Positions 1,163 through 15,474 of a stretch of 64,000 nt of DNA are shown piece by piece. Each line of letters opens with the position of its first letter. Positions within the stretch are counted from its first letter, which is position 1. A model generated the notes under the pieces. It worked only from the letters and a program-made list of their open reading frames with translations. It ran no database searches and was not told where the DNA came from. The position numbers and the translations under genes are program-made. The stretch lies in contig JAGWAR010000003.1 in NCBI GenBank assembly GCA_021296325.1, positions 5,796-69,795 of the forward strand. The letters run 5' to 3'. This DNA comes from Alphaproteobacteria bacterium (lineage in GTDB: Bacteria; Pseudomonadota; Alphaproteobacteria; GCA-2746255).

Positions 1163-1732
1163 CTAAGCCGATAGCTCTTCGTATTGTTTTACGAATTCAC
1201 CAGCCAGCGAACGCAACACCAGCTTGATCTGGGTCAGGATTTTCTCGCCCTCGCCGTCCGTCGTCATCTTGGCGTAATTCGATCCGAAGGAACTTATCCA
1301 AGGTCCGGGCGATTCTTTGATATGAACGGAGATGATGTTTTTGGCACCGTCCGCCTCGACCATGACCGCCAAGGCAACGTCACAGATCGATTCGGCCATG
1401 AAAACACCGTAGGCGTGACATTTGCCGGAAAATTTCTGTAGTTGCATCGAGGTAATGGTCGCACCTTGCGGCATCGCGGCAAGCAAATGCCCAAGGAGAT
1501 AATCACCGATGGAAATCGTGTGGTATTTGTTCGAAAGGTTGTCGGACATGTATTCGAAGGTGGCATTGCCAAACGTGGAACGGTCCGCCATCGAGATCTT
1601 ATCCATCATCGGAGCGGCGCCCGGCACCTGCTGCGCCGTCGGTTGTGGAATGTTGACCTGGGTCGCCCGGCCGCAACCAACGAGAGCCGTGGCCAAAACG
1701 AGGACCGCCAAAAGTCTGCTGTAATTTTTCAT
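1163..1732 (-). CDS. Lipoprotein of unknown function (189 aa), lower GC than surroundings
   Basis: Signal peptide with lipobox LVGC (MKNYSRLLAVLVLATALVGCG). No recognisable catalytic motifs. GC is roughly 55% against about 64% locally. Confidence 0.55.
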   Translation of the reverse strand: MKNYSRLLAVLVLATALVGCGRATQVNIPQPTAQQVPGAAPMMDKISMADRSTFGNATFEYMSDNLSNKYHTISIGDYLLGHLLAAMPQGATITSMQLQKFSGKCHAYGVFMAESICDVALAVMVEADGAKNIISVHIKESPGPWISSFGSNYAKMTTDGEGEKILTQIKLVLRSLAGEFVKQYEELSA

Positions 1733-1889
1733 TTCCCCCCCGTGCGAATGCCGAATCGGGGTAAACGGCCCCGATCATCAAGCAGATTTGCCAGTCTAGC
1801 TGCGAATCGCGGCCAGGAGAACCCACCTTGTACCCGATCCGGGAGGACAAAACGCGCGTTCGGTGGCATATTTTTCTAAGGGTAGCCCG

Positions 1890-2099
1890 ATGACCGAAAC
1901 CGCATCCACCATCACCTGCCCGGAATGCGGGCACACAAAGACCGAGGCGATGCCGACGGAGGCTTGCGTCTATTTCTACGAATGCGGAACCTGCGGCGCG
2001 CTTCTGAAGCCAAGGAAGGGGGATTGTTGCGTCTTTTGTTCCTATGGGTCCGTCCCCTGCCCGCCCGTCCAGGAAGCCCGGGCCGGGCGGGAGACCTAG
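1890..2099 (+). CDS. GDCCVxC-domain small cysteine-rich protein (69 aa from ATG 1890; track ORF starts at an upstream GTG, 1863)
   Basis: MTETASTITCPECGH...CVYFYECGTCGALLKPRKGDCCVFCSYGSVPCP has ten Cys including the GDCCVFC signature of the GDCCVxC (seleno)protein family. An SD-like AAGGG lies 8 nt upstream of ATG 1890. Confidence 0.65.
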   Translation: MTETASTITCPECGHTKTEAMPTEACVYFYECGTCGALLKPRKGDCCVFCSYGSVPCPPVQEARAGRET

Positions 2100-2312
2100 G
2101 CGCCAAGGACGGCGAGCGCCGGTTTGGGGTGCCTTTAGCTCTTTCTTAAGGCGCATACGGTAGTAACTGCAGACGGAGAAGTGGGCCATTTGAAGGGGAC
2201 ACTCGACCGTGCATACGCCGATGAAAAGCGAGAAGGCATTCCTCTGCACGCCCGCGGCCAAGAGGCCGTCGGCGAGAAGGATGGGCTGCGCCCATCCTTC
2301 GGGGGGTGCCCG

Positions 2313-3632
2313 GTGACTCCCTACGAAATCCTGCAACTTCTTCGCAAGCATGAGAAATGGCTTGCCGGCAAGGCCGATGGCGAGCGCGCGGATCTGAGCC
2401 AGGCCGATCTGTCGGGCCTGGACCTTTCCAAGGCGGATCTGCGGAAGGCGCGCATGAATGGCGCCGTTCTCAAAAACTGCAACCTGACCGGCGCCAATCT
2501 GGAAGGCGCCAGCCTCTACGCGGCGAATCTGTCCGACTGCATCCTGAGAAAGGCGAACCTCACGAAGGCCGATTTACATGGCGTCGATCTCAAGAAAGCC
2601 GACTTGACCGAGGCCAATCTGGAAGGCGCCGACCTGCGGGAGGGCCGGATGTTCGACATGAGCTAGGGGGACGGCTGGAAAGCCGTCGGCAGCAACCTCG
2701 GGCAATCCGTCCTGAACGGCGCTATTTTGAAAAACGTCAACCTCACCCGCGCTAACATGAAAAAGGTGTCCGCCCTGGATGCCGACATGTCGGGCGCGAC
2801 GCTGGTGGGCGTCAAACTTCAGGAATCGGATCTGAAAGGCGCCAATCTAAGCAATTCAAACCTTGCAGGCGCCAATCTCGGGAATACGGACCTGTCCAAC
2901 TGCAATTTCGACGCGGCCAATCTCACCCGTGCCAACGTGGCAGGCGCAAACCTTGCCAACGCCAATCTGGAAACGGCGAACCTGATGGACGTGGAGATGG
3001 CGCTTTCCCATGTGAAGAACGCCAAGCTTCCGCGCACGCCCCCGAAGGGCAAGCGGCCGATCCAGGTTGTGCTGGAGGACCATTTGCGCTGGATCGAAAC
3101 CCGGGGCAAGGAAGGCGAACGGGCCAATTGCGACGGCTACGACCTTACCAATCTGGACCTTTCCGGCATCGACCTCAGCGGCGCCAGCATGAAAGGGGCC
3201 GACCTGTCTCGCGCCGATCTTCACGGCTGCACGTTCGAGCTTTCCGACCTGTCCCGCGCCACGCTTCAGAACACGAATCTGGAAGGCGTGAACATGGCCG
3301 GGACAAACCTGACGGAGGCCGACCTGACCGGCGCCAATTTTCATGGGGCGCGGCTTGTCTCGGTCGAGCTTCGCGACCAGGCGGGGCGCTCCACGGGACG
3401 AATGTGGCCCACCAATTTGAGCCGGGCGGCCCTGCTGGGCGCCTGCCTCGCGGAATCGGACCTGACGGGGGCCAACCTGCGCGGGGCCGATCTGCGCGGG
3501 GCCGATCTGCGCGGGGCCAACATGGCCGGGGCGGCCGTGGAAGGCGCCAATCTGGAGGGCGTGCAGTTCAAGGGCGTCATCGCCTTCGACGGCGTGATCG
3601 AGGACGTCGCAAAGCAAAAGCGGGCGGGTTAA
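2313..3632 (+). pseudogene. Pentapeptide-repeat protein paralogue 1 (PRP1), interrupted by an in-frame TAG at 2664-2666; otherwise a 439-codon frame
   Basis: Track ORFs 2181..2666 and 2727..3632 are in the same frame, separated only by one amber codon (..LREGRMFDMS*GDGWKAVGSNLGQS..). The start is placed at GTG 2313 by homology: (M)TPYEILQLLRKHEKWLAGK aligns with MSPKDIIRLLRKHERWLQGK (PRP2) and MSPHEIIRLLRKHEQWLQGK (PRP3). The body is A(D/N)LxG-type pentapeptide repeats. Confidence 0.7.
3477..3521 (+). repeat. Three tandem 15-bp units (ctgcgcggggccgat x2, ctgcgcggggccaac) inside PRP1 encoding (L)RGAD repeats
   Basis: Read directly: ..ctgcgcggggccgatctgcgcggggccgatctgcgcggggccaac.. translated GANLRGADLRGADLRGANMAG. 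Confidence 0.8.
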
Positions 3633-3643
3633 CCCTGATAGAC

Positions 3644-3660
3644 CCCGTCGGACGGCGCGT
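3644..3660 (+). terminator. Putative rho-independent terminator after PRP1
   Basis: CGGACG-gcg-CGTCCG hairpin followed by atttccataaaattttt (T-rich). Confidence 0.45.
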
Positions 3661-3920
3661 CCGATTTCCATAAAATTTTTCGAAAATTTGATTCCCTCTT
3701 GCCAGGGAACGGCGTCGATTGGCCGTTTCGCTGAACTATTTCGTTAAAGCAAAAAATTTTATCTAAATTCAAAACAAATTCTAACCAAATCCGAATCGAA
3801 AATTATTGAAAGCTTTATTCGATTTAAGGTTTCTTCTCGTTAAGTGAGAAGGAGTGGGCACGAGGCAAACACGGTTTCCTTTCTGTTAAGCGAATTAGGA
3901 AGATCGCTTTTTTCGAAGGT
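3661..3920 (+). promoter_or_regulatory. AT-rich (~40% GC) 260-bp spacer between PRP1 and PRP2: probable regulated promoter or curved-DNA region
   Basis: Strong compositional contrast with the 64% GC flanks. It contains A-tracts (aaagcaaaaaattttatctaaattcaaaacaaattctaacc), direct repeats ttcgaaaat / atcgaaaatt and tctcgttaagtga / tctgttaagcga. The only ORFs are short overlapping ones with no support. Confidence 0.4.
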
Positions 3921-3941
3921 ATGGAACCAAGTAGGTGTGAC

Positions 3942-5205
3942 ATGTCTCCAAAGGACATCATACGGCTGCTGCGAAAGCACGAAAGGTGGCTACAAGGCAA
4001 GGTCGGCGGCGTACAGGCCAACCTTTCGAACATGAACCTAACCGGGTTGGATTTTTCCTATTCCAACCTGAGTCAGGCCGAGCTTAACAGCACCAACCTC
4101 AAGCGCAGCAATTTGAACGGCGCCAACCTTTCGGGTGCGCATCTGCCGGCGGCCGACCTTTCGCTCGCCAATCTGATTCACGCGGACTTCACCGGCGCAC
4201 ACATGCAAGGCGTCAACCTGCACAAGGCCGTTCTCAAGCGCGCCAAGCTTGAGCTTGCGGATTTGCGGGAAGGCCGCGTTGCCGCCTGGAGCGAATCCGG
4301 CGACTGGAAAGCCATGTCCATCGCGGCCGATCTCAGCAACGCCGTCTTCGACGAGGGCGAACTGACCGATGCCAATTTGAGCGGCGCTGATATGCGCGGA
4401 AGTTCAGGCAAGGACGCCAACCTCTCCGGCACCATCCTTACCGGTGCAAAACTGGACAACGCCGATTGGAAAAAGGCGAACCTGACCCAGGCCAACCTTA
4501 CGGACGCAAGGCTTGTGGAAGCGAATTTCGCCGGCAGCAATTTCAACGCGGCGACCCTTGTCCGGGCCGACGTTCACGGAACCGATTTTTCGAACGCCAT
4601 CCTCGATACCGCCAATCTCGAGGATGCGCCGATCGAATTCGCAAAACTGCAAGGCGCAAAGCTTCCGGCGTCATTCAAGAAGCGGGCCAAGCCGCTGCAG
4701 AACGTCCTCAGGGATCATCAGCGCTGGATCGAAACCCGGGGAAGAACCGGCGAACGGGCCATGCTGGACGGCTATGATCTGAGCGGCCAGAACCTGTCCG
4801 GCATCGATATGAGCGGCGCCAGCCTCCGCGGGGCGGACCTTTCCGAGGAGGATCTAAGCACCGGCACCTTCGAATTAACAGACTATTCTTACGAATATGG
4901 AAGGCGCGCGGCTTGCCGGCGCCAATCTTCTGGAGGCCAATTTAAGCGGGGCAAACCTTCACAACGCCCAGCTGATTTCGATCGAGCTTCGGGATTCCAT
5001 CGGCAAGCGTACGGGACGGATGTGGCCGTCCAACCTTACGCGCGCAACGCTGATCAATACCCGGCTGGCAGGCGCCAATCTTACAGAAGCCAACCTGACC
5101 GATGCCAATATGCACGGCGCAGATCTTGACGGCGTGACTTTTGCCGGAGCGGGCATCCGCGTGGCTCCGGCAGAGCCGGAAGGCTACGGAAATTCGGCCT
5201 CGTGA
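3942..5205 (+). pseudogene. Pentapeptide-repeat protein paralogue 2 (PRP2), frameshifted near 4875-4895 by a ~17-nt deletion relative to PRP1 and PRP3
   Basis: N-terminus MSPKDIIRLLRKHERWLQGK from ATG 3942. In-frame translation degenerates into Arg/Gln-rich nonsense after ..FELTDYSYEY. The +1 frame (track ORF 4897..5205) resumes the paralogous sequence NMEGARLAGANL...VELRDSIGKRTGRMWPSNLTRATL. Nucleotide alignment with PRP1 and PRP3 shows 40 nt here where they have 57 nt. Confidence 0.65.
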
Positions 5206-5250
5206 ACACGAAACCCATGAACAACCATCAAGCCTACAATTAGGTGAAAC

Positions 5251-6546
5251 GTGTCCCCTCATGAAATCATACGGTTGCTTCGGAAGCACGAGCAGTGGCT
5301 GCAAGGCAAGCCCGAGGGTGCGCAGGCGGATTTTTCCAAGCTGGATCTTTCCGGCCTGGACCTTTCCAGCGCGAATTTGAGCCGGGCAAACCTGAATGGC
5401 GTGTCCCTGAAAAACTGCAACCTGACCGGCGCCAACCTTGAGAACGCCAATTTGTACGCGGCCGAATTTTCCTATTCGACGCTTGCGCATGCGAATCTCA
5501 AGGGCGCCGACCTGCATGGCGTAAATTTCTACAAGGCCGACCTTAGCGGAGCCAGCCTTGAAAAGGCCGATCTGCGGGAGGGCCGCCTCGCCGTCATGAC
5601 GGGCAAGGGCACCTGGCAGGTCGTCGGCAGCAACCTTGGCCGCTCGATCCTGGACGAGGCCACGCTTCGGGGCGCCAACCTGACGCGTACCGACATGAAG
5701 GCCTGCTCGGCAGTTGGAGCCGATTTTTCCGGGGCGACGATGGTCGGCGCGCGCATGAAAAACGCCAATTGCGAAGGCGCTAACCTGAACCATGCCAACC
5801 TTTCGGGCGCCAATCTTGGAAATGCCAATCTGAAAGGCTGCAATTTCAGTGGCGCCACGCTGGTCCAGACCCACGTGACGGGCGCCGATTTCTCAAACGC
5901 GAATCTTGAAACCGCCAATCTGGTGGACGTGCCGCTGACGCTTGCAAAAGTGACCAAGGCGCGCCTGCCGGCCACGCCGTCGGAGCGGAAAAAGACGATC
6001 GAGGCCATCCTCGAGAGCCACATGAAGTGGGTGAAAAGCCGGGGCAGCATGGGCGAACAGGCCATCCTGGACGGCTATGACCTGAGCTGGCTCAACCTCG
6101 CCGGCGTGGACTTGAGCGGCGCCAGCCTGAAAGGCGCCAATCTTTCGGAAACCGACCTGCATGGCGGGATTTTCGAACTGGCCGATTTTTCCGGGGCTGC
6201 CCTTCAGGGCACGAATCTGGAAGACGCCGTCCTGTCCGGCGCCAGCCTTTCGGAAGCGGACCTGAGCGGCGCCAATTTGCGCCGGGCTCATCTGCATCCG
6301 GTGGAATTGCGGGATCAAAACGGCATCTCGACCGGGCGCACCTGGCCCACCAACCTCTCGCGGGCGGCCCTTCTGGAAGCCAATTTGAGCGGCGCCGACC
6401 TCACATCGGCGAATCTGACCCATGCCGATTTACGCGGCGCGGACCTGCGCGATGCCAGTCTGAAGCAGGCGATCGTCGAAGGCGTGAACATGGAAGAAGC
6501 CTATTTCGGCGAAGATGGAAAGAGGGCCGCCGCCGCGGCGTCCTGA
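5251..6546 (+). CDS. Pentapeptide-repeat protein paralogue 3 (PRP3), 431 aa, apparently intact
   Basis: MSPHEIIRLLRKHEQWLQGKPEGAQADFS.. followed by three blocks of A(D/N)LxG pentapeptide repeats. Non-repeat segments ..IEAILESHMKWVKSRGSMGEQAILDGYDLS.. and ..VELRDQNGISTGRTWPTNLSRAALL.. are shared with PRP1 and PRP2. Confidence 0.8.
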   Translation: MSPHEIIRLLRKHEQWLQGKPEGAQADFSKLDLSGLDLSSANLSRANLNGVSLKNCNLTGANLENANLYAAEFSYSTLAHANLKGADLHGVNFYKADLSGASLEKADLREGRLAVMTGKGTWQVVGSNLGRSILDEATLRGANLTRTDMKACSAVGADFSGATMVGARMKNANCEGANLNHANLSGANLGNANLKGCNFSGATLVQTHVTGADFSNANLETANLVDVPLTLAKVTKARLPATPSERKKTIEAILESHMKWVKSRGSMGEQAILDGYDLSWLNLAGVDLSGASLKGANLSETDLHGGIFELADFSGAALQGTNLEDAVLSGASLSEADLSGANLRRAHLHPVELRDQNGISTGRTWPTNLSRAALLEANLSGADLTSANLTHADLRGADLRDASLKQAIVEGVNMEEAYFGEDGKRAAAAAS

Positions 6547-6571
6547 CCACCATCCCCCCTGTGCCCTGACC

Positions 6572-6596
6572 CGGCCGGCGAACACGGAACGCCGGC
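6572..6596 (+). terminator. Putative rho-independent terminator after PRP3
   Basis: GCCGGCG-aacacggaa-CGCCGGC hairpin followed by ttgtat. Confidence 0.4.
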
Positions 6597-6653
6597 TTGT
6601 ATCCCGGCGAAAAGCCGTTCACGCTTCGTGGATGCCTTTCCGGGAGAGCCTTC

Positions 6654-7400
6654 ATGCGCATAAGCCCCCTGCCCTGGCTTGAGCCGGTGATCGCCCACCG
6701 CGGCGCAAGCGGGGTGGCGCCGGAGAACACCCTGGCCGCGATCCGCCGGGCGGGCGAGCTTGGCGCCCGCTGGGTGGAGGTCGACCTTCGCCGGACCGCG
6801 TCGGGGCCTTTCGTGCTCATGCACGACGCCACCCTCGATCGCACGACGAACGGCACGGGCCTGGTTTCGGAAACGCCTTGCGAGGCGATCGCCGGGTTGG
6901 ACGCCGGCGGCTGGTTCGGGTCGGACTTCGCGGGCGAGCCGGTACCGACACTGAATGCCTTTATGGCGCTTTGCGGCGAGCTTGGGCTGGTAGCCAATAT
7001 CGAGATCAAGGCGGAAGCCGACGCGGACGCGGTTGGTTATGCCGCCGCCAAGGCCCTGCTTGAAGGCTGGCCGGGAACGCTGCCGCCGCCGCTGATCTCA
7101 AGCGATTCGCCCACCCTGTTGCGCGCCGTCGCGAAAATAGCGCCCGATTTTCCCCGTGGCCTCATCGTAACCCAGGTGCCAAGCGAAGCCGTGCTCAACG
7201 AACGCGCCTGGGGATGCGTTTCCGTGCACGCCAGCGATACGTTTCTTACGCGGGCCAAGACCGCGTTGCTGGTCGCCAGTGGCTACGCCGTGCTGGTGTA
7301 CACGGTCAACACGCCGGCGCGCGCCCGAACGCTTTTCGGCTGGGGGGTCGATGCCATCTTCACGGACCACCCGGAGCCGGCGCGCTGGCAGAACGGCTAG
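6654..7400 (+). CDS. Glycerophosphodiester phosphodiesterase (GDPD family)
   Basis: MRISPLPWLEPVIAHRGASGVAPENTLAAIRRAGELGARWVEVDLRRTASGPFVLMHDATLDRTTNG carries the HRG..ENT and E.D motifs of GDPD. RBS GGGAGAG precedes ATG 6654. Confidence 0.8.
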   Translation: MRISPLPWLEPVIAHRGASGVAPENTLAAIRRAGELGARWVEVDLRRTASGPFVLMHDATLDRTTNGTGLVSETPCEAIAGLDAGGWFGSDFAGEPVPTLNAFMALCGELGLVANIEIKAEADADAVGYAAAKALLEGWPGTLPPPLISSDSPTLLRAVAKIAPDFPRGLIVTQVPSEAVLNERAWGCVSVHASDTFLTRAKTALLVASGYAVLVYTVNTPARARTLFGWGVDAIFTDHPEPARWQNG

Positions 7401-7711
7401 CGGCCGGCTTCGAGCAAAAACCCGATGGCAAGCAGCGTCAACAACCGCCGCGTGCGGGCATCGATTTCCTTCTGTGTCCCATCCCCGGACGCCGCACCCG
7501 CATCCGACGTCTCTCGCCGCGCCCGCAAGGGTGGCCGCGTATCGGCGGGTGGCGCCATCGCGGTTAGAGCCGGCGGTTCGACGGCGGCTTCGCGTGCCAG
7601 CGTGAAACGGGGATGCTCCAGGGTTACCAGAGCGACACCGGTAAGCCCCAGCAAGAAGGCGCCGAGCGCATGGATGCCGATCTTCCGACCAGGAAATCGC
7701 ATCGTCATCAT
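7397..7711 (-). CDS. Possible small two-helix membrane protein (104 aa)
   Basis: Two hydrophobic segments (IHALGAFLLGLTGVALVTL; LLTLLAIGFLL). It is convergent with the GDPD gene, overlapping by 4 nt. There is no homology evidence. Confidence 0.3.
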   Translation of the reverse strand: MMTMRFPGRKIGIHALGAFLLGLTGVALVTLEHPRFTLAREAAVEPPALTAMAPPADTRPPLRARRETSDAGAASGDGTQKEIDARTRRLLTLLAIGFLLEAGR

Positions 7712-7884
7712 CTGCCTCCTTTGATTCCCGGAGTGCAGGGTAGCGCGACCGCCCTAAGGAAAAATTAAGTAATACATTGATTTTATTGATTATTATCGTC
7801 TTTTGCAGAAAAGATGCGCGACGTATTTAGCAGGTTTGCCGTGCAAATTCGCGGCGAATGCGCCGAAGCCAGCGTTTCCGCCCA

Positions 7885-9342
7885 TCACGCCCCCTGCCCG
7901 AATGGTCCGAACATGGATTCGGCAGGACCGGCCGTGACCGGCCGGCCGGAAAGGTGGCGGTTGATCCAGGCCGGCAGTTTCGGCGCCGGCATTGGATGGC
8001 CGATGCCATAGCCCTGGGCCAGATCGCAGCCAAGCTCGGTCAGAAAATCCCGGGCGGGCCCGGATTCGATTCCCTCGGCAACGACCGTGACCCCGAGTCG
8101 CTCGGCCAGGTAAATCAGGGACTGCACGATCGCCACGTCGCTCATGTTCGTCGTGATGTTGGCGATGAAGGACGGGTCGATCTTGATTTCGTGGATGGGC
8201 AGTTTTTTCAGATAGGCAAAGGAGGAGAACCCCGTCCCGAAATCGTCAACCGAGATCCGAATTCCCATGGAATGAAAGCGATTTAGAATCTCCAGAATGT
8301 GATCGAGGTTCAGCATTAACGCGCTTTCGGTGATTTCCAGCACGAGAAGTTCGGTCGAGATCTGCCAGTGCTCCAGCAGGCCGATCACCCGTTCGGGCAA
8401 TTCGAGATCGTGCAGGGCGCGCGGAGAAACGTTGATCGCGACCGGCAGGGATAGCCCCTGCCGGCTCCAGACGCCTACCTGTTCAAGCCCCATGCTGATC
8501 GTGGCCTCCGTCAGGGTCTTGATCACGGCGGTGCGTTCCGCGGCGGGAATGAAGTCGCCGGGAGGCACCAGCCCATGCACCGGGTGATGCCAGCGCACCA
8601 GCGCCTCGACACCGACCAGGTGGCCCGTCTTCAGGGAAATTTTCGGCTGGTATTCGAGCTTCAGCTGGTCCCGTTCGAGGGCTTCCCGCAGCTCGCTGGC
8701 ATAGAGGAAACGGCGGTGCATCTGGTCGTCGCGGGCTAGGTTGTACAGGGCATAGCCGCTGTTCAGGCGCTTGGCTTCGTACATCGCCTGATCGGCATGA
8801 CGGAACAGCGTCGAGGAATCGGCGCCATGCTCCGGAAAGAGCGCAATACCGATGCTGATGCCGACGTCGACGAAACTCCCATCCAGCGCGATCGGCACCT
8901 CCACCGTATGGGCGATCTTTTCGGCCAGGGCGAAGGTGCCCTCCAAGGACGCGGTGGTGGGCAGAATGGCCATGAACTCGTCCCCGCCGAGACGGGCAAG
9001 GGTGTCCGATTCACGGCACGTCCCGACCAGCCGCTCGGCCACCTTCTTCAACACCTCGTCGCCCGCATCGTGGCCCAGCGTATCGTTGATTTCCTTGAAC
9101 CGGTCGAGGTCCATCATAAGCACGGCAAGGCGGGTGTTGTTCCGCCGCGAAAGCGCGATGGCGCGGTCGAGGCGGTCATGAAACAACGCCCGGTTGGAAA
9201 GGCCCGTCAGGGGATCGTAAAGGCTTAGCTGTTCCAGCTCTTCCTGGGTGCGGACGAGTTCGTTGGTAAGCTCGGTGACGCTCCGGTAGGTTTCGTCAAG
9301 CTCGGTTTCCAGGGCGGCAATGGTGGCCCTGGCGGCACGCAA
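7885..9342 (-). CDS. GGDEF-EAL protein (diguanylate cyclase/phosphodiesterase) with only a coiled-coil N-terminus and no sensor domain
   Basis: The RLGGDEF motif and EAL domain (..LKLEYQPKISLKTGHLVGVEALVRW..) are present. The track start 9405 overlaps the upstream gene by 58 nt; a TTG at 9342 lies immediately after the upstream stop (9347-9349). Confidence 0.8.
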   Translation of the reverse strand: MRAARATIAALETELDETYRSVTELTNELVRTQEELEQLSLYDPLTGLSNRALFHDRLDRAIALSRRNNTRLAVLMMDLDRFKEINDTLGHDAGDEVLKKVAERLVGTCRESDTLARLGGDEFMAILPTTASLEGTFALAEKIAHTVEVPIALDGSFVDVGISIGIALFPEHGADSSTLFRHADQAMYEAKRLNSGYALYNLARDDQMHRRFLYASELREALERDQLKLEYQPKISLKTGHLVGVEALVRWHHPVHGLVPPGDFIPAAERTAVIKTLTEATISMGLEQVGVWSRQGLSLPVAINVSPRALHDLELPERVIGLLEHWQISTELLVLEITESALMLNLDHILEILNRFHSMGIRISVDDFGTGFSSFAYLKKLPIHEIKIDPSFIANITTNMSDVAIVQSLIYLAERLGVTVVAEGIESGPARDFLTELGCDLAQGYGIGHPMPAPKLPAWINRHLSGRPVTAGPAESMFGPFGQGA

Positions 9343-9346
9343 CGCG

Positions 9347-9769
9347 TCATTTCCATTTGACGATTTCAACCCGGGTCCCCTTGCCAATGGTGGAAGTGAT
9401 CGCAAAATCGTCCATCAGACGCTTGACGCCGGGCAGACCCTGTCCGGGATTGCCGCCTGCCGGTACGCCGTCCTCGACGGCGCGGCGGGTATCCGAAATG
9501 CCGGGCCCCTGATCGATAAAGACGCAGCGTATGCCGATGGCGCTGCCGTTTTCGGCCAGATGCATCTCCATCCGCCCACCACCACCATGCAGCAAGGTGT
9601 TGCGCGCCAGCTCGCTGACCGAGGTTGCGATACGGGTCTTGTCGAGGGCCGAGAAACGCAGCTCTTCGGCGTATTGCCGGGCCGCCCGCCGGGTGCGGAT
9701 GATGTCTTCTTCGGAAGCGATGTCATACGCGTTCATGATCGCTTGCTCTTGGCAGTGCGCGATTTTCAT
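9347..9769 (-). CDS. RsbW/SpoIIAB-like anti-sigma regulatory factor (GHKL Ser/Thr kinase), 140 aa
   Basis: ..ATSVSELARNTLLHGGGGRMEMHL...IRCVFIDQGPGI.. shows N-box/G-box-like HATPase_c motifs. Size is typical of partner-switch kinases. Confidence 0.65.
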   Translation of the reverse strand: MKIAHCQEQAIMNAYDIASEEDIIRTRRAARQYAEELRFSALDKTRIATSVSELARNTLLHGGGGRMEMHLAENGSAIGIRCVFIDQGPGISDTRRAVEDGVPAGGNPGQGLPGVKRLMDDFAITSTIGKGTRVEIVKWK

Positions 9770-11938: not shown

Positions 11939-12928
11939 TTAGCGATCCGCCGGATTGAAACCGGTCTTGCGTGCAAAATTGTGACGCGCCTCGATCATGC
12001 GCACCGTGCCGGATTTCGAACGCATCACCGTCGAATAGGTGTAGGCACCGCCGGCAAAACGGCGCACGCCTTTAAGCATGGAGCCGTTCGTCACCCCGGT
12101 CGCCGCAAACATGACGTCGCCATTGGCCATTTCGCTCAGGCTGTATTTGCGGTTGAAGTCGGTGATGCCGCAATGCTTCGCCCGGCCGCGTTCGTCGTCG
12201 TTGCGGAACTGGAGGCGGCCCTGCATCTGGCCGCCGATGCAGCAAAGGGCGGCGGCGGCCAGCACGCCTTCCGGGGCGCCACCGATGCCCATGTAGATGT
12301 CCACCCCGCTGTCCGGCAGCGTGGTGGCGATGACGCCGCTGACGTCGCCGTCCGAGATCAGCATGATGCGCGCGCCCGCCTCGCGGATGCCGGCGATCAG
12401 TTCGTGATGGCGGGGCCGGTCGAGCACGCAGACGACGAGGTCGGAAACGTCCGAGCCTTTCGCCTTGGCCAGCGCCTTCAGATTTTCCGCAGGGCTCGCA
12501 TCGAGATCGACGATCCCCCCGGGCAGCCCCCGGCCGACGGCGATCTTGTCCATGTAGACGTCCGGGGCGTTCAGGAACCCGCCGTCCTCGGCCATGGCGA
12601 TCACGGCCAGCGCGTTCTGCCCGCCCTTGGCGGTGATCGTCGTGCCTTCGAGGGGGTCCAGCGCGATGTCGACCTTCGGCCCCTTGCCGAGGCCCACCTT
12701 CTCGCCGATATAGAGCATCGGGGCTTCGTCCCGCTCACCCTCGCCGATGACGACGGTGCCATCGATGGTCAGGCTGTTCAGGGCCGCGCGCATGGCATCA
12801 ACCGCCGCCTGGTCGGCTGCCTGCTCGTCGCCGCGGCCCATCAGGAGGGACGCGGAAAGGGCCGCCGCTTCCGTGACGCGCACCACTTCCAGCGCCAGGT
12901 TGCGCTCCATCGTTCCTTGCTTTGCCAT
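11939..12928 (-). CDS. glpX: Fructose-1,6-bisphosphatase class II (GlpX)
   Basis: 329 aa; MERNLALEVVRVTEAAALSA..GRGDEQAADQAAVDAMR.. is characteristic of GlpX. Confidence 0.85.
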   Translation of the reverse strand: MAKQGTMERNLALEVVRVTEAAALSASLLMGRGDEQAADQAAVDAMRAALNSLTIDGTVVIGEGERDEAPMLYIGEKVGLGKGPKVDIALDPLEGTTITAKGGQNALAVIAMAEDGGFLNAPDVYMDKIAVGRGLPGGIVDLDASPAENLKALAKAKGSDVSDLVVCVLDRPRHHELIAGIREAGARIMLISDGDVSGVIATTLPDSGVDIYMGIGGAPEGVLAAAALCCIGGQMQGRLQFRNDDERGRAKHCGITDFNRKYSLSEMANGDVMFAATGVTNGSMLKGVRRFAGGAYTYSTVMRSKSGTVRMIEARHNFARKTGFNPADR

Positions 12929-12949
12929 TCCCGCTCCCTGCTCTTACGA

Positions 12950-14254
12950 CTAGGTTCGGCCGCCTAGCGTTTCAATCCGAATCATTCTGGGCGATTCCAC
13001 GACCGTATCCAAGCGGTCGATTCGCTCAAGGGCGTGACGCATCGCCGACTCGCTGGTTTCATGGGTCGTGATGACGACCGGCACGGTGGAACCCGGCGAA
13101 CGCTGGCGCTGCAGCATCGATTCCATCGACACCTTTTCATCCCGGAGGATGGCTGCCACGTCCGCGATGACGCCGGGGCGATCGACCAGCATCAGGCGCA
13201 AGTAATAGGCGCCCCAGTGGCGATCCATCGGCGCCGAGAGAATCCTGGCGAGGTGCCGGGCCGGCACCGAAAAGGTCGGGAGCCGCGTCCCGCGGGCAAT
13301 GTCGACGAGATCGGCAACGATGGCCGAGGCCGTCGGGCCGGCGCCGGCGCCGCGTCCCTCGAACATGGCGCTTTCCACGAAGTCGCCGTCGGCGACGATC
13401 GCGTTATCGACGCCTTCGACATAGGCAATGGGCGCCGACAACGGCACCATGCACGGGTGCACGCGCTGTTCGAGTCCGTCTTCCGTCGGCCGCACCGTGC
13501 CCAGCAGCTTGATCCGGTAGCCAAGTTCCTCGGCGTAACCAATGTCGAGCGCGCTTACGTGACGAATGCCTTCCGTATAAACGCCGTCGAAATCGATCTC
13601 GCAACCGAAGGCGACGGCGGCCAGGATGGCAAGCTTGTGGGCCGTATCGACGCCATCGACGTCGAAGGAGGGATCGGCTTCGGCGTAGCCGAGCTTCTGG
13701 GCCTCCTCCAGGACGGCTTCGAATTCGCGCCCCGAACGGCGCATCTCGGTCAGGATGAAATTGCTGGTCCCGTTCAGAATTCCGTAGACGCGTTTCAGGT
13801 GATTGCCGGCCAGCCCTTCGCGCAACGCCTTGATGATCGGGATGCCGCCTGCCACTGCGGCTTCGTAAGCCAGCACAACGCCCCGTTCCTCCGCCATGCG
13901 GGCCAGCGGAATCCCGTGATGGGCCAGCATTGCCTTGTTCGCGGTGACGACGTGGCGGCCATGCTGGATGGCCGTGTCGCAAATTTCTTTCGCAACCCCG
14001 TCGGCACCACCGATCAGCTCGACGACGACATCGACTTCCGCTTCGGCCGCCATCTGGACCGGGTCATCGAACCACGGCACGTTCTGGAGGTTGATGCCCC
14101 GGTCGCGCTTGCGGTCGCGGGCCGATACGGCCGAAACGACGAGCGAGTGGCCGCACCGCTCGGTGAGCAGTTCACCGTGCTCCTGCAGAACGCGATAGGT
14201 GCCGGCACCGACCGTTCCCAGCCCGGCAATCGCCACTTTCAATTGCGTGTTCAA
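12950..14254 (-). CDS. hom: Homoserine dehydrogenase
   Basis: 434 aa; [13 protein letters not shown]-binding N-terminus, catalytic core and C-terminal ACT domain. Confidence 0.85.
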
Positions 14255-15474
14255 GATGCCGCTGCCCTTCCTTCCAGCTGCTCGAGCAATTTATCGGCAG
14301 AACCGATAAACGCCTTGATGTTCCGCACCGCCTGCCGGGTCCGATGCGCGTTTTCGACGACGGCGAGTCGCACGTGTCCCTCGCCATATTCACCGAAGCC
14401 AAGGCCCGGCGAGACGGCAACCTTCGCTTCCTGCAGCAGCAGCTTCGAGAAGGCGAGCGAACCCAGATGCGCGAAGGGCGCAGGCAACGGCGCCCAGACG
14501 AACATCGTCGCCGGCGGTGATGGCACGTTCCAGCCCGCCGCCTGCAGGCCATGCACGAGAATGTCGCGGCGTTCCCGGTAGATCTGGCGAATTTCCTCGA
14601 CGCAGTCCTGCGGGCCGTTCAGCGCCGCCACGGCGGCCACCTGAATCGGCGTAAAGGCCCCGTAATCCACATAGGACTTGATGCGCGCGAGCGCGCCGAT
14701 CAGCTTTGGGTTGCCGGTGGCAAAACCGATTCGCCAGCCCGGCATGTTGTAGGTCTTGCTGAGCGAGGTGAATTCGACCGCGATGTCCTTGGCGCCGGGC
14801 ACCTGCAGGATCGAGGGTGGCGGCCCGGATTCAAAATAGATCTCGGCATAGGCCAGGTCCGACAGAATATAGATCTGGTGCCGCCGGCAGAAATCGACGA
14901 CTTCGCCATAGAAATCGAGGTCGACGACCTGGGTCGTCGGGTTCGACGGGAAATTGAGCACCAGCGCGGTCGGCGGCGGCACGCTGTGGCGGAGTGCCCG
15001 CTCCAGCCCCTTCAGGAACTCGTTGATGTCGGGACCCAGGGGAATGTGCCGGATGGCCGCGCCCGCGATGATGAAGCCGTAGGGGTGGATCGGATAGCTT
15101 GGGTTCGGCACGAGCACGATGTCGCCCGGCGAGGTGATTGCCTGGGCAAGGTTGGCCAAGCCTTCCTTCGATCCGATCGTCACGATCGTTTCCGTTTCCG
15201 GATCGACCGAGACGTTGAATCGCCGGGCGTAATAGTTCGCCAGCGCCTTGCGCAGGCCGGGAATGCCCCGCGAGTTCGAATAGCGGTGGGTTTTCGGGTC
15301 CTGGACGGTTTCGACCAGCTTATCGACAATATGCTGCGGCGTCGGCCGGTCGGGATTCCCCATGCCGAAGTCGATAATGTCCTCGCCGGCCGCGCGTGCG
15401 CGGGCCTTCATTGCATTTACTTCAGCGAAGACGTAGGGCGGAAGCCGCCGAATCCGGTGGAATTCCTGTTCCAT
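14251..15474 (-). CDS. PLP-dependent aminotransferase class I/II, AlaC/YfdZ-like (alanine transaminase family)
   Basis: [56 protein letters not shown] closely follows the E. coli AlaC pattern. It overlaps the hom start by 4 nt. Confidence 0.8.

Follow-up and report, generated by a model that had tools for sequence, protein, structure and literature searches.

How did the middle gene of a three-gene array come to be divided between two reading frames, and what does it still encode? The question is raised by a 64,000-nt stretch of DNA from Alphaproteobacteria bacterium (GenBank assembly GCA_021296325.1, contig JAGWAR010000003.1, positions 5,796 to 69,795 of the forward strand; hereafter the window), which carries at 2313-6546 on the forward strand three tandem paralogues, PRP1, PRP2 and PRP3, encoding two-domain pentapeptide-repeat proteins (PRPs). 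We consider it probable, with moderate confidence, that a lineage-specific 17-bp deletion has turned PRP2 into a frameshift pseudogene in early decay, or at most into a truncated gene, within a copy-number-variable accessory array. The genes of the array are as follows.

2313..3632, forward strand: PRP1, first gene of the array, two-domain pentapeptide-repeat protein with an in-frame TAG at 2664-2666
3942..5205, forward strand: PRP2, whole locus, starting at ATG 3942, its reading frame split by the loss of 17 nt
5251..6546, forward strand: PRP3, third gene of the array, intact open reading frame (ORF) of 431 amino acids (aa), beginning 45 nt past the old PRP2 stop

The 17-nt deletion in PRP2

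In a MAFFT alignment of the three paralogues, PRP2 differed from PRP1 and PRP3 by one 17-nt gap (alignment columns 949-965). The 17 nt are also present in all five available orthologous sequences, which come from two other lineages (L151; L152-L155), and are missing in the window only. On this comparison the gap cannot be a chance artefact of alignment, because the five orthologous sequences carry the 17 nt, those of L152-L155 within an uninterrupted ORF of 426-428 codons. The original prediction, made from the letters of the window, had noted 40 nt in PRP2 against 57 nt in both PRP1 and PRP3 and had proposed a deletion of about 17 nt that shifts the frame; paralogue and orthologue alignments and tblastn all bear this out, and the nucleotide alignment of the three paralogues that it had named as a check returned just this single gap in PRP2 against both others.

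Orthologue alignment and tblastn place the junction between 4893 and 4894 on the forward strand (TACG/AAT, the slash marking the junction), and the paralogue alignment had it between 4889 and 4890, 4 bases to the left. The sequence over the junction is TTCTTACG/AATATGG; at the same place L151 reads TACG CCATCCTCCAGGACGCG AAC and L152 reads TACG CGATCCTTCAGGGTGCA AAC. Written in codons, TCT TACG/AAT ATG in the window stands against TCC TAC GCC ATC CTC CAG GAC GCG AAC CTC in L151 and TCC TAC GCG ATC CTT CAG GGT GCA AAC CTT in L152. Lost from the 426-codon gene are the last 2 nt of codon 318 and codons 319-323 (..SY[AILQGA]NLEG..), and the ACG (Thr) now read in the +1 frame is not ancestral but was formed by fusion across the junction. 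An L151-like ancestor would have had CG flanking both ends, that is, a 2-nt microhomology, and if the ancestor had CG on both sides the placement of the junction is ambiguous by up to 2 nt. When the L152 reading frame was walked along PRP2 of the window, this one lesion was the sole difference from an intact gene. In tblastn with intact L152 PRP2, aa 1-317 matched 3942-4892 in one frame with 86% identity and aa 324-426 matched 4894-5202 in another frame with 70% identity, six residues being missing between them, and 13 neighbouring genes aligned unbroken in the same comparison. According to the AlphaFold2 (AF2) model of PRP3, the deletion site is predicted to lie in the third coil of the C-terminal beta-helix, approximately 2.25 coils in.

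The deletion is neither a homopolymer slip nor a clean slip of one 15-nt repeat unit, and no direct or inverted repeats flank it beyond the intrinsic 15-nt periodicity. It may perhaps have arisen by end-joining or by slippage on the 2-nt CG microhomology. Two other origins were considered and rejected. The pair TTCGAAT and TACGAAT, read as the target duplication of a transposon footprint, consists of ancestral Phe-Glu codons with a window-specific G-to-A change and of a string made by the junction itself (TACG/AAT). A chimera of the 5' part of PRP3 and the 3' part of PRP1, formed by unequal crossing-over, does not fit the distances, PRP2 being about equally distant from both throughout (42-72% per 40-aa window).

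The junction lies in a patch of unusual composition.

4869..4898, forward strand: low-GC patch, 26.7% GC, spanning the junction

This is the lowest 30-nt GC content in PRP1-PRP3, the minimum in the other two genes being 40%, and the patch is thus as conspicuously AT-rich as had been described from the window; the 40-nt string then singled out lies at 4866-4905 and has 37.5% GC. The same 30 columns have 46.7% GC in L151 and 53.3% in L152. The AT-richness is due to point substitutions, of which seven are window-specific in 4874-4897 (six GC-to-AT and one T-to-A), together with the loss of the GC-rich 17-mer (59-71% GC). The patch is not foreign DNA, and a replacement is not supported, because every remaining base aligns with the orthologues; no donor for it was found within 3 mismatches elsewhere in the window. 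Of the earlier proposal that a deletion or replacement, and not a homopolymer slip, had occurred here, the deletion and the rejection of slippage therefore stand, and the replacement does not. Seven private changes in 24 nt gave a Poisson P of approximately 0.008 for a segment chosen post hoc, and private changes are denser in other 40-nt segments of the gene; we regard the patch as a modest local cluster that is possibly linked to the repair event.

PRP2 and its array in related genomes

Orthologues were reached by two routes. A RecJ-anchored genome scan led to related uncultured Alphaproteobacteria and gave OZ252220.1, but the locus retrieved from it ended 65 nt short of the PRP3 start, and contigs fetched through the GDPD gene beside PRP3 closed the gap. 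A homology search with repaired full-length PRP2 returned generic pentapeptide-repeat proteins only (best 36% identity) and did not recover PRP3, a profile of the non-repeat linker returned only short proteins (up to 160 aa) and no orthologues, and a literature search found nothing specific. The loci obtained are as follows.

L152-L155 (GCA_040220975.1, GCA_049617655.1 and two Logan assemblies; one species): three intact PRP genes, of 442, 426-428 and 432 aa
L151 (OZ252220.1, a 2.1-Mb chromosome): PRP1 and PRP3 intact, PRP2 in pieces
L082, L160 and L161-L163 (more distant relatives): two PRP genes
L157 and L158 (more distant relatives): no PRP gene; a small GDCCVxC gene abuts the GDPD gene directly

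Between the GDCCVxC gene and the GDPD gene, the number of PRP genes is thus 0, 2 or 3 in related genomes and three in the window, with syntenic flanks (TonB-dependent receptor/ABC uptake genes, lipoprotein, GDPD, RecJ and GlpX). The PRP2 ORF of L152-L155 is likewise syntenic, lying between the orthologues of PRP1 and PRP3 (at 7268..8548 in L152). Nucleotide identity over five genes is 77-84% among the window, L151 and L152, which makes the three roughly equidistant. PRP2 of L151 (OZ252220.1, locus 7263-8542) keeps the 17 nt but has a 1-nt deletion at codon 80, TAA at codon 183 and TAG at codon 227, all in the N-terminal part and none common to the window. Because L151 has the 17 nt and three other lesions, PRP2 is, on these alignments, a gene inactivated at least twice, independently. 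PRP1 of the window is interrupted as well: its in-frame TAG at 2664-2666 (..EGRMFDMS, stop, GDGWKA..) falls in the N-terminal hairpin, the same codon is CAA (Gln) in L151 and GAC in L152, and the PRP1 orthologues are uninterrupted ORFs of 442 aa. The window thus has two broken array members, and only PRP3 is whole. Since relatives have 0, 2 or 3 copies, PRP2 of L151 is broken in another way and PRP1 is stopped by a TAG, the PRP family appears to be dispensable at this locus. At the level of sequence, these comparisons show a deletion that is derived and lineage-specific, independent losses, and variation in copy number.

In a neighbour-joining tree, PRP2 stood on a long stem beside the B (PRP3) type, the bootstrap being uninformative on its sister group. 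PRP2 is approximately 50% identical to every other family member, and A-type proteins share 53-68% identity with B-type ones. We read PRP2 as a clade-specific, fast-diverging third copy that is absent from the two-gene arrays.

We propose the following course of events. The 17-bp deletion would have taken out codons 318-323 in the third coil of the C-terminal beta-helix of PRP2. Ribosomes starting at ATG 3942 would then read 317 native and 78 nonsense residues, and the last 103 conserved codons would never be read. Full-length PRP2 would thereby be lost and the locus left as a frameshift pseudogene, and we infer a loss of PRP2 function. Bacterial frameshift pseudogenes of dispensable paralogues belong to the birth-and-death evolution of tandem gene families. 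PRP2 resembles them in that its out-of-frame deletion is derived, its relatives are intact, an independent loss has occurred elsewhere, a paralogue is kept, and the copy number is 0, 2 or 3.

Reading frames and selection on either side of the junction

The junction leaves the following elements.

3942..4893, forward strand: PRP2 upstream part, codons 1-317 and the first base of codon 318, in the original frame
4893..5129, forward strand: frame-0 read-through, 78 nonsense codons and a stop at 5127-5129
4894..5205, forward strand: PRP2 downstream remnant, old codons 324-426 (the last 103), now in the +1 frame
4897..4899, forward strand: ATG of a 102-codon +1 ORF (4897..5205), 3 nt past the junction

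By comparison with the AF2 model of PRP3, the upstream part is predicted to span the whole N-terminal beta-helix domain, the linker, the second helix and approximately 2.25 coils of the C-terminal beta-helix. From ATG 3942, frame 0 reads TGTFELTDYSYEYGRRAACRRQSSGGQF, a stretch also quoted as TGTFELTDYSYEYGRRAACRRQ. Its tail, translated from the native Tyr (4890), is YEYGRRAACRRQSSGGQFKRGKPSQRPADF...ARRRS followed by the stop; of its 79 residues, 16 are R and 9 are Q. In the +1 frame, a TAA at 4876-4878 blocks reading from farther 5', and past it the frame runs through TNMEGARLAGANL (also quoted as NMEGARLAGANL) to the stop at 5203-5205, the downstream remnant comprising the rest of the C-terminal beta-helix including its beta-hairpin (ELRD..TGRMWPSNL). 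The window had been described beforehand as having an in-frame PRP2 product that ends in Arg/Gln-rich nonsense and a 3' part (ORF 4897..5205) readable in +1 only; the composition of the tail agrees with the former, and the 102-aa product of the latter matches PF00805 with E = 4.5e-22. Exact look-ups of the 395-aa and 102-aa PRP2 products, the two PRP1 fragments and a 189-aa lipoprotein found no record and hence no second assembly of the junction, and those of PRP3 and GDPD reached only the Logan contig L001, which begins at 5004.

Substitutions were counted at sites where one of three lineages (window, L151 and L152) differs alone, and are given for codon positions 1/2/3.

Upstream, codons 1-317, window branch: 16/9/55
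Upstream, L152 branch (intact): 20/8/51
Downstream, old frame, window branch: 16/8/12
Downstream, old frame, L151 branch: 4/4/20
Downstream, old frame, L152 branch: 4/3/24

The third-position bias of 16/9/55 on the window branch indicates that the upstream part has been under purifying selection. The upstream and downstream counts of the window differ in their distribution over codon positions (Fisher p = 0.0005), and the downstream counts of 16/8/12 are compatible with a uniform distribution (chi-square p = 0.26). Private amino-acid changes in codons 324-405 (82 codons) numbered 12 in the window, 0 in L151 and 5 in L152 (p = 0.002), the absence of private changes in these C-terminal 82 codons of L151, whose lesions are N-terminal, being the mirror image of the window pattern. 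The severed part has apparently evolved under little constraint for a sizeable share of the separate history of this lineage, unlike the upstream part. Gene conversion from PRP1 or PRP3 is not supported as the source of the downstream private changes, since the derived bases that agree with a paralogue (12 of 37 sites for PRP1, 9 of 37 for PRP3) are scattered. The only hint of it lies at approximately 5143-5152, where PRP2 of the window has GCCGGAGCGG, the orthologues have TCCCGCGCGA or TCCCATGCGA, and PRP1 has GCCGGGGCGG at the aligned place; PRP1 may have donated this stretch in a very short conversion tract, or the agreement may be coincidental.

Several observations weigh against a pseudogene. 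Unlike pseudogenes of birth-and-death families, PRP2 has one lesion and no further decay, the downstream remnant being free of any additional stop or indel, and its upstream part still looks selected. Private residue changes upstream number 18 in the window and 16 in the intact L152 gene, so that relaxed constraint is not seen there, which leaves two readings, a recent deletion or continued selection on the truncated product. Downstream, the private replacements were more conservative than random ones (mean BLOSUM62 +0.42 vs -0.57, P approximately 0.02). Conservative replacements and the lack of a second indel or stop point to a recent deletion rather than to long neutral drift, and the signals of timing thus conflict. 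Moreover, the only other assembly of the strain, Logan L001 (SRR35761419), begins at 5004, 110 nt past the deletion, leaving the junction in one assembly.

The same upstream signal is the basis of a second explanation, possible although we hold it to be rather unlikely, in which purifying selection maintains the 317 native residues as a shortened PRP and drift is confined to the severed C-terminal part. The 16/9/55 pattern, with private changes as few as in the intact orthologue, next to neutral-looking 16/8/12 downstream, is what such a protein would leave. Metagenomes contain abundant single-domain homologues (approximately 150-160 aa) that share the helix-plus-repeat layout, and frame 0 is open to within 122 nt of the PRP3 start. 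However, the counts are small, and faster evolution of the C-terminal part before a recent deletion would give the same pattern, its replacements being conservative and an extra indel or stop being absent. The product would also end in an uncapped partial beta-helix followed by the 78 nonsense residues, and the destruction of L151 PRP2 in its N-terminal part and the absence of PRP2 from distant relatives argue that the whole gene is dispensable.

We judge it improbable that the 17-nt gap is an error of the metagenome contig or one haplotype of a mixed population. The window does come from the contig of a metagenome-assembled genome (MAG), since an NCBI protein labelled 'MAG: Alphaproteobacteria bacterium', from a contig of 84.7 kb, matches its GDPD with 100% identity, and, with L001 beginning where it does, the site occurs in no second assembly. 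Nevertheless, a 17-nt loss in non-repetitive, non-homopolymer sequence is atypical of consensus errors, and mis-joining is unlikely between paralogues that are only approximately 65-70% identical in DNA. The contig is 100% identical to the independent L001 over 2,935 nt (5004-7938), and its 13 neighbouring genes are unbroken. The extra divergence downstream is as expected after a real loss of frame, and PRP2 is independently broken in L151. The end of the L001 contig itself, at 110 nt, is too far from the deletion to be a bubble caused by it (k = 31).

A fission of PRP2 into two polypeptides, the second starting from the new ATG 4897 behind an A/T-rich, unstructured leader, is very unlikely. 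This ATG is window-specific, codon 325 being CTT in L152 and CTC in L151 (CTY to ATG, Leu to Met), it lies directly past the junction, and the cluster of six GC-to-AT and one T-to-A changes runs over 24 nt through its first base. However, the sequence 5' of it, GACTATTCTTACGAAT, holds no Shine-Dalgarno motif, and there is no upstream stop for translational coupling, since frame 0 reads through. On the window branch, purifying selection is not seen in the downstream part, and neutral changes from Leu to Met are common at the central repeat position, a second one having occurred in the window at old codon 396; the statistic for the cluster was post hoc.

Programmed +1 ribosomal frameshifting, which would restore a near-full-length PRP2 by joining the overlapping frames with a shift between 4879 and 4893, can be set aside: although PRP2, like prfB, has its conserved downstream part in the +1 frame relative to the start, it lacks the conserved shift site, in-frame stop and Shine-Dalgarno stimulator of prfB, ACA GAC TAT TCT TAC GAA TAT (4878-4896) holds no slippery or re-pairing codon, stop, obvious hungry codon or GGAGG-like stimulator, the intact orthologues use a single frame and thus show no conserved recoding site, and the joined frames would still be short of six residues, which is not a whole number of pentapeptides. 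That no programmed-frameshift signal was obvious had already been remarked from the window, and none was found.

Nature of the array and meaning of the PRP2 deletion

The assignment of the array to the pentapeptide-repeat family rests on PF00805, with bit scores of 261 for PRP3 (E = 1.7e-79), 184 for the PRP2 upstream part (E = 2e-55) and 77.7 for the downstream remnant against a Pfam gathering cut-off of 20.2; in PRP1, PF00805 matched on both sides of the TAG. PRP3 is 83-87% identical to the L151 and L152 orthologues, and an independent Logan contig holds the same sequence unchanged. Its AF2 model had a mean predicted local distance difference test score of 91.6. It places an N-terminal helix at 3-17, a first beta-helix at approximately 27-235 broken by a hairpin at 113-125, a linker and second helix at 250-262, a second beta-helix at approximately 272-418 with a hairpin at 351-365, and a C-terminal helix at 423-430. 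Single-residue strands every 5 residues, as in a right-handed quadrilateral beta-helix, were found in the model, as a prediction only.

The A(D/N)LXX repeats and, judging from this model, the beta-helix with one strand per five residues are common to the array PRPs and known PF00805 proteins. Unlike the latter, the array PRPs have two repeat domains, each following a helix with an H..W motif and each broken by a beta-hairpin excursion. The best sequence matches in the PDB were the designed beta1 repeat proteins 4yfo and 4yc5, and natural ones included All3740 (3du1) and Np275/Np276 (2j8k). The NCBIfam scores for four functional subfamilies fell below the curated cut-offs (HetL 212/260, MfpA 90.5/360, Qnr 86.7/240 and PipB2 156.5/354 bits), which leaves the array proteins as generic PRPs without an assigned function; the only model exceeded among the subfamilies tested was the short Alr5209 (183 vs 125), via six repeated partial hits. 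The DNA-mimic gyrase protectors Qnr and MfpA share the repeat fold class, but they are single-domain proteins of approximately 180-220 aa whereas an array PRP has 431 aa and two domains, the array scores of 87-90 bits stand against cut-offs of 240-360, and there is no evidence tying the array to topoisomerases.

Transcription of what is left of PRP2 may be governed by the spacer in front of it.

3633..3941, forward strand: spacer 5' of PRP2, AT-rich, 25-47% GC (composition)

GC content falls to 25% in this spacer, which contains long blocks, such as CCCGATTTCCATAAAA and AAAAATTTTATCTAAATT, that are invariant in an alignment of three lineages differing at approximately 22% of coding positions. 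Its core, AATTTT..AAATT..CGAA(T/C)CGAAA..TGA, also occurs 5' of the B-type gene in two-gene arrays. Over 1700-7000, Rfam gave no match, and a scan for promoter and terminator consensus gave no sigma-70 hit and no terminator-like site between PRP2 and PRP3. The spacer is probably the promoter or regulatory region for PRP2-PRP3, as a regulatory element of an unrecognised kind. PRP2 and PRP3 would have this upstream region in common, and transcription of the PRP2 remnant probably continues, given its place between the conserved spacer and PRP3.

Two further features of the surroundings were observed. At 1890-2099 on the forward strand lies a conserved Cys-rich ORF of 69 aa that matches NCBIfam NF041374, 'GDCCVxC domain-containing (seleno)protein' (106 bits vs 40), and in most related loci examined this ORF stands directly 5' of the PRP array, or of the GDPD gene where the array is absent. 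Beside the GGDEF-EAL gene, the window (9347-9769, reverse strand) and L152 keep only a small RsbW/SpoIIAB-like HATPase gene, whereas L151 has a full partner-switching module there (12222-15415; PAS-STAS, STAS, kinase and SpoIIE phosphatase); the module has either been reduced to a remnant in the window or been inserted in L151.

For annotation, PRP2 should be treated as one pseudogene or truncated locus at 3942..5205 instead of a 395/402-aa gene and a 102-aa gene, and PRP1 should be flagged for its internal TAG. If the shortened product were in fact used, a two-domain protein would have become a shorter one, with differential decay at the level of domains inside a young paralogue. The preferred explanation, a lineage-specific frameshift pseudogene, adds an instance of a well-known type of event, with no new mechanism and nothing yet on PRP function. 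It would provide a small, clean case of birth-and-death evolution, in which a two-gene array gained a fast-diverging third copy that was then lost at least twice by different lesions.

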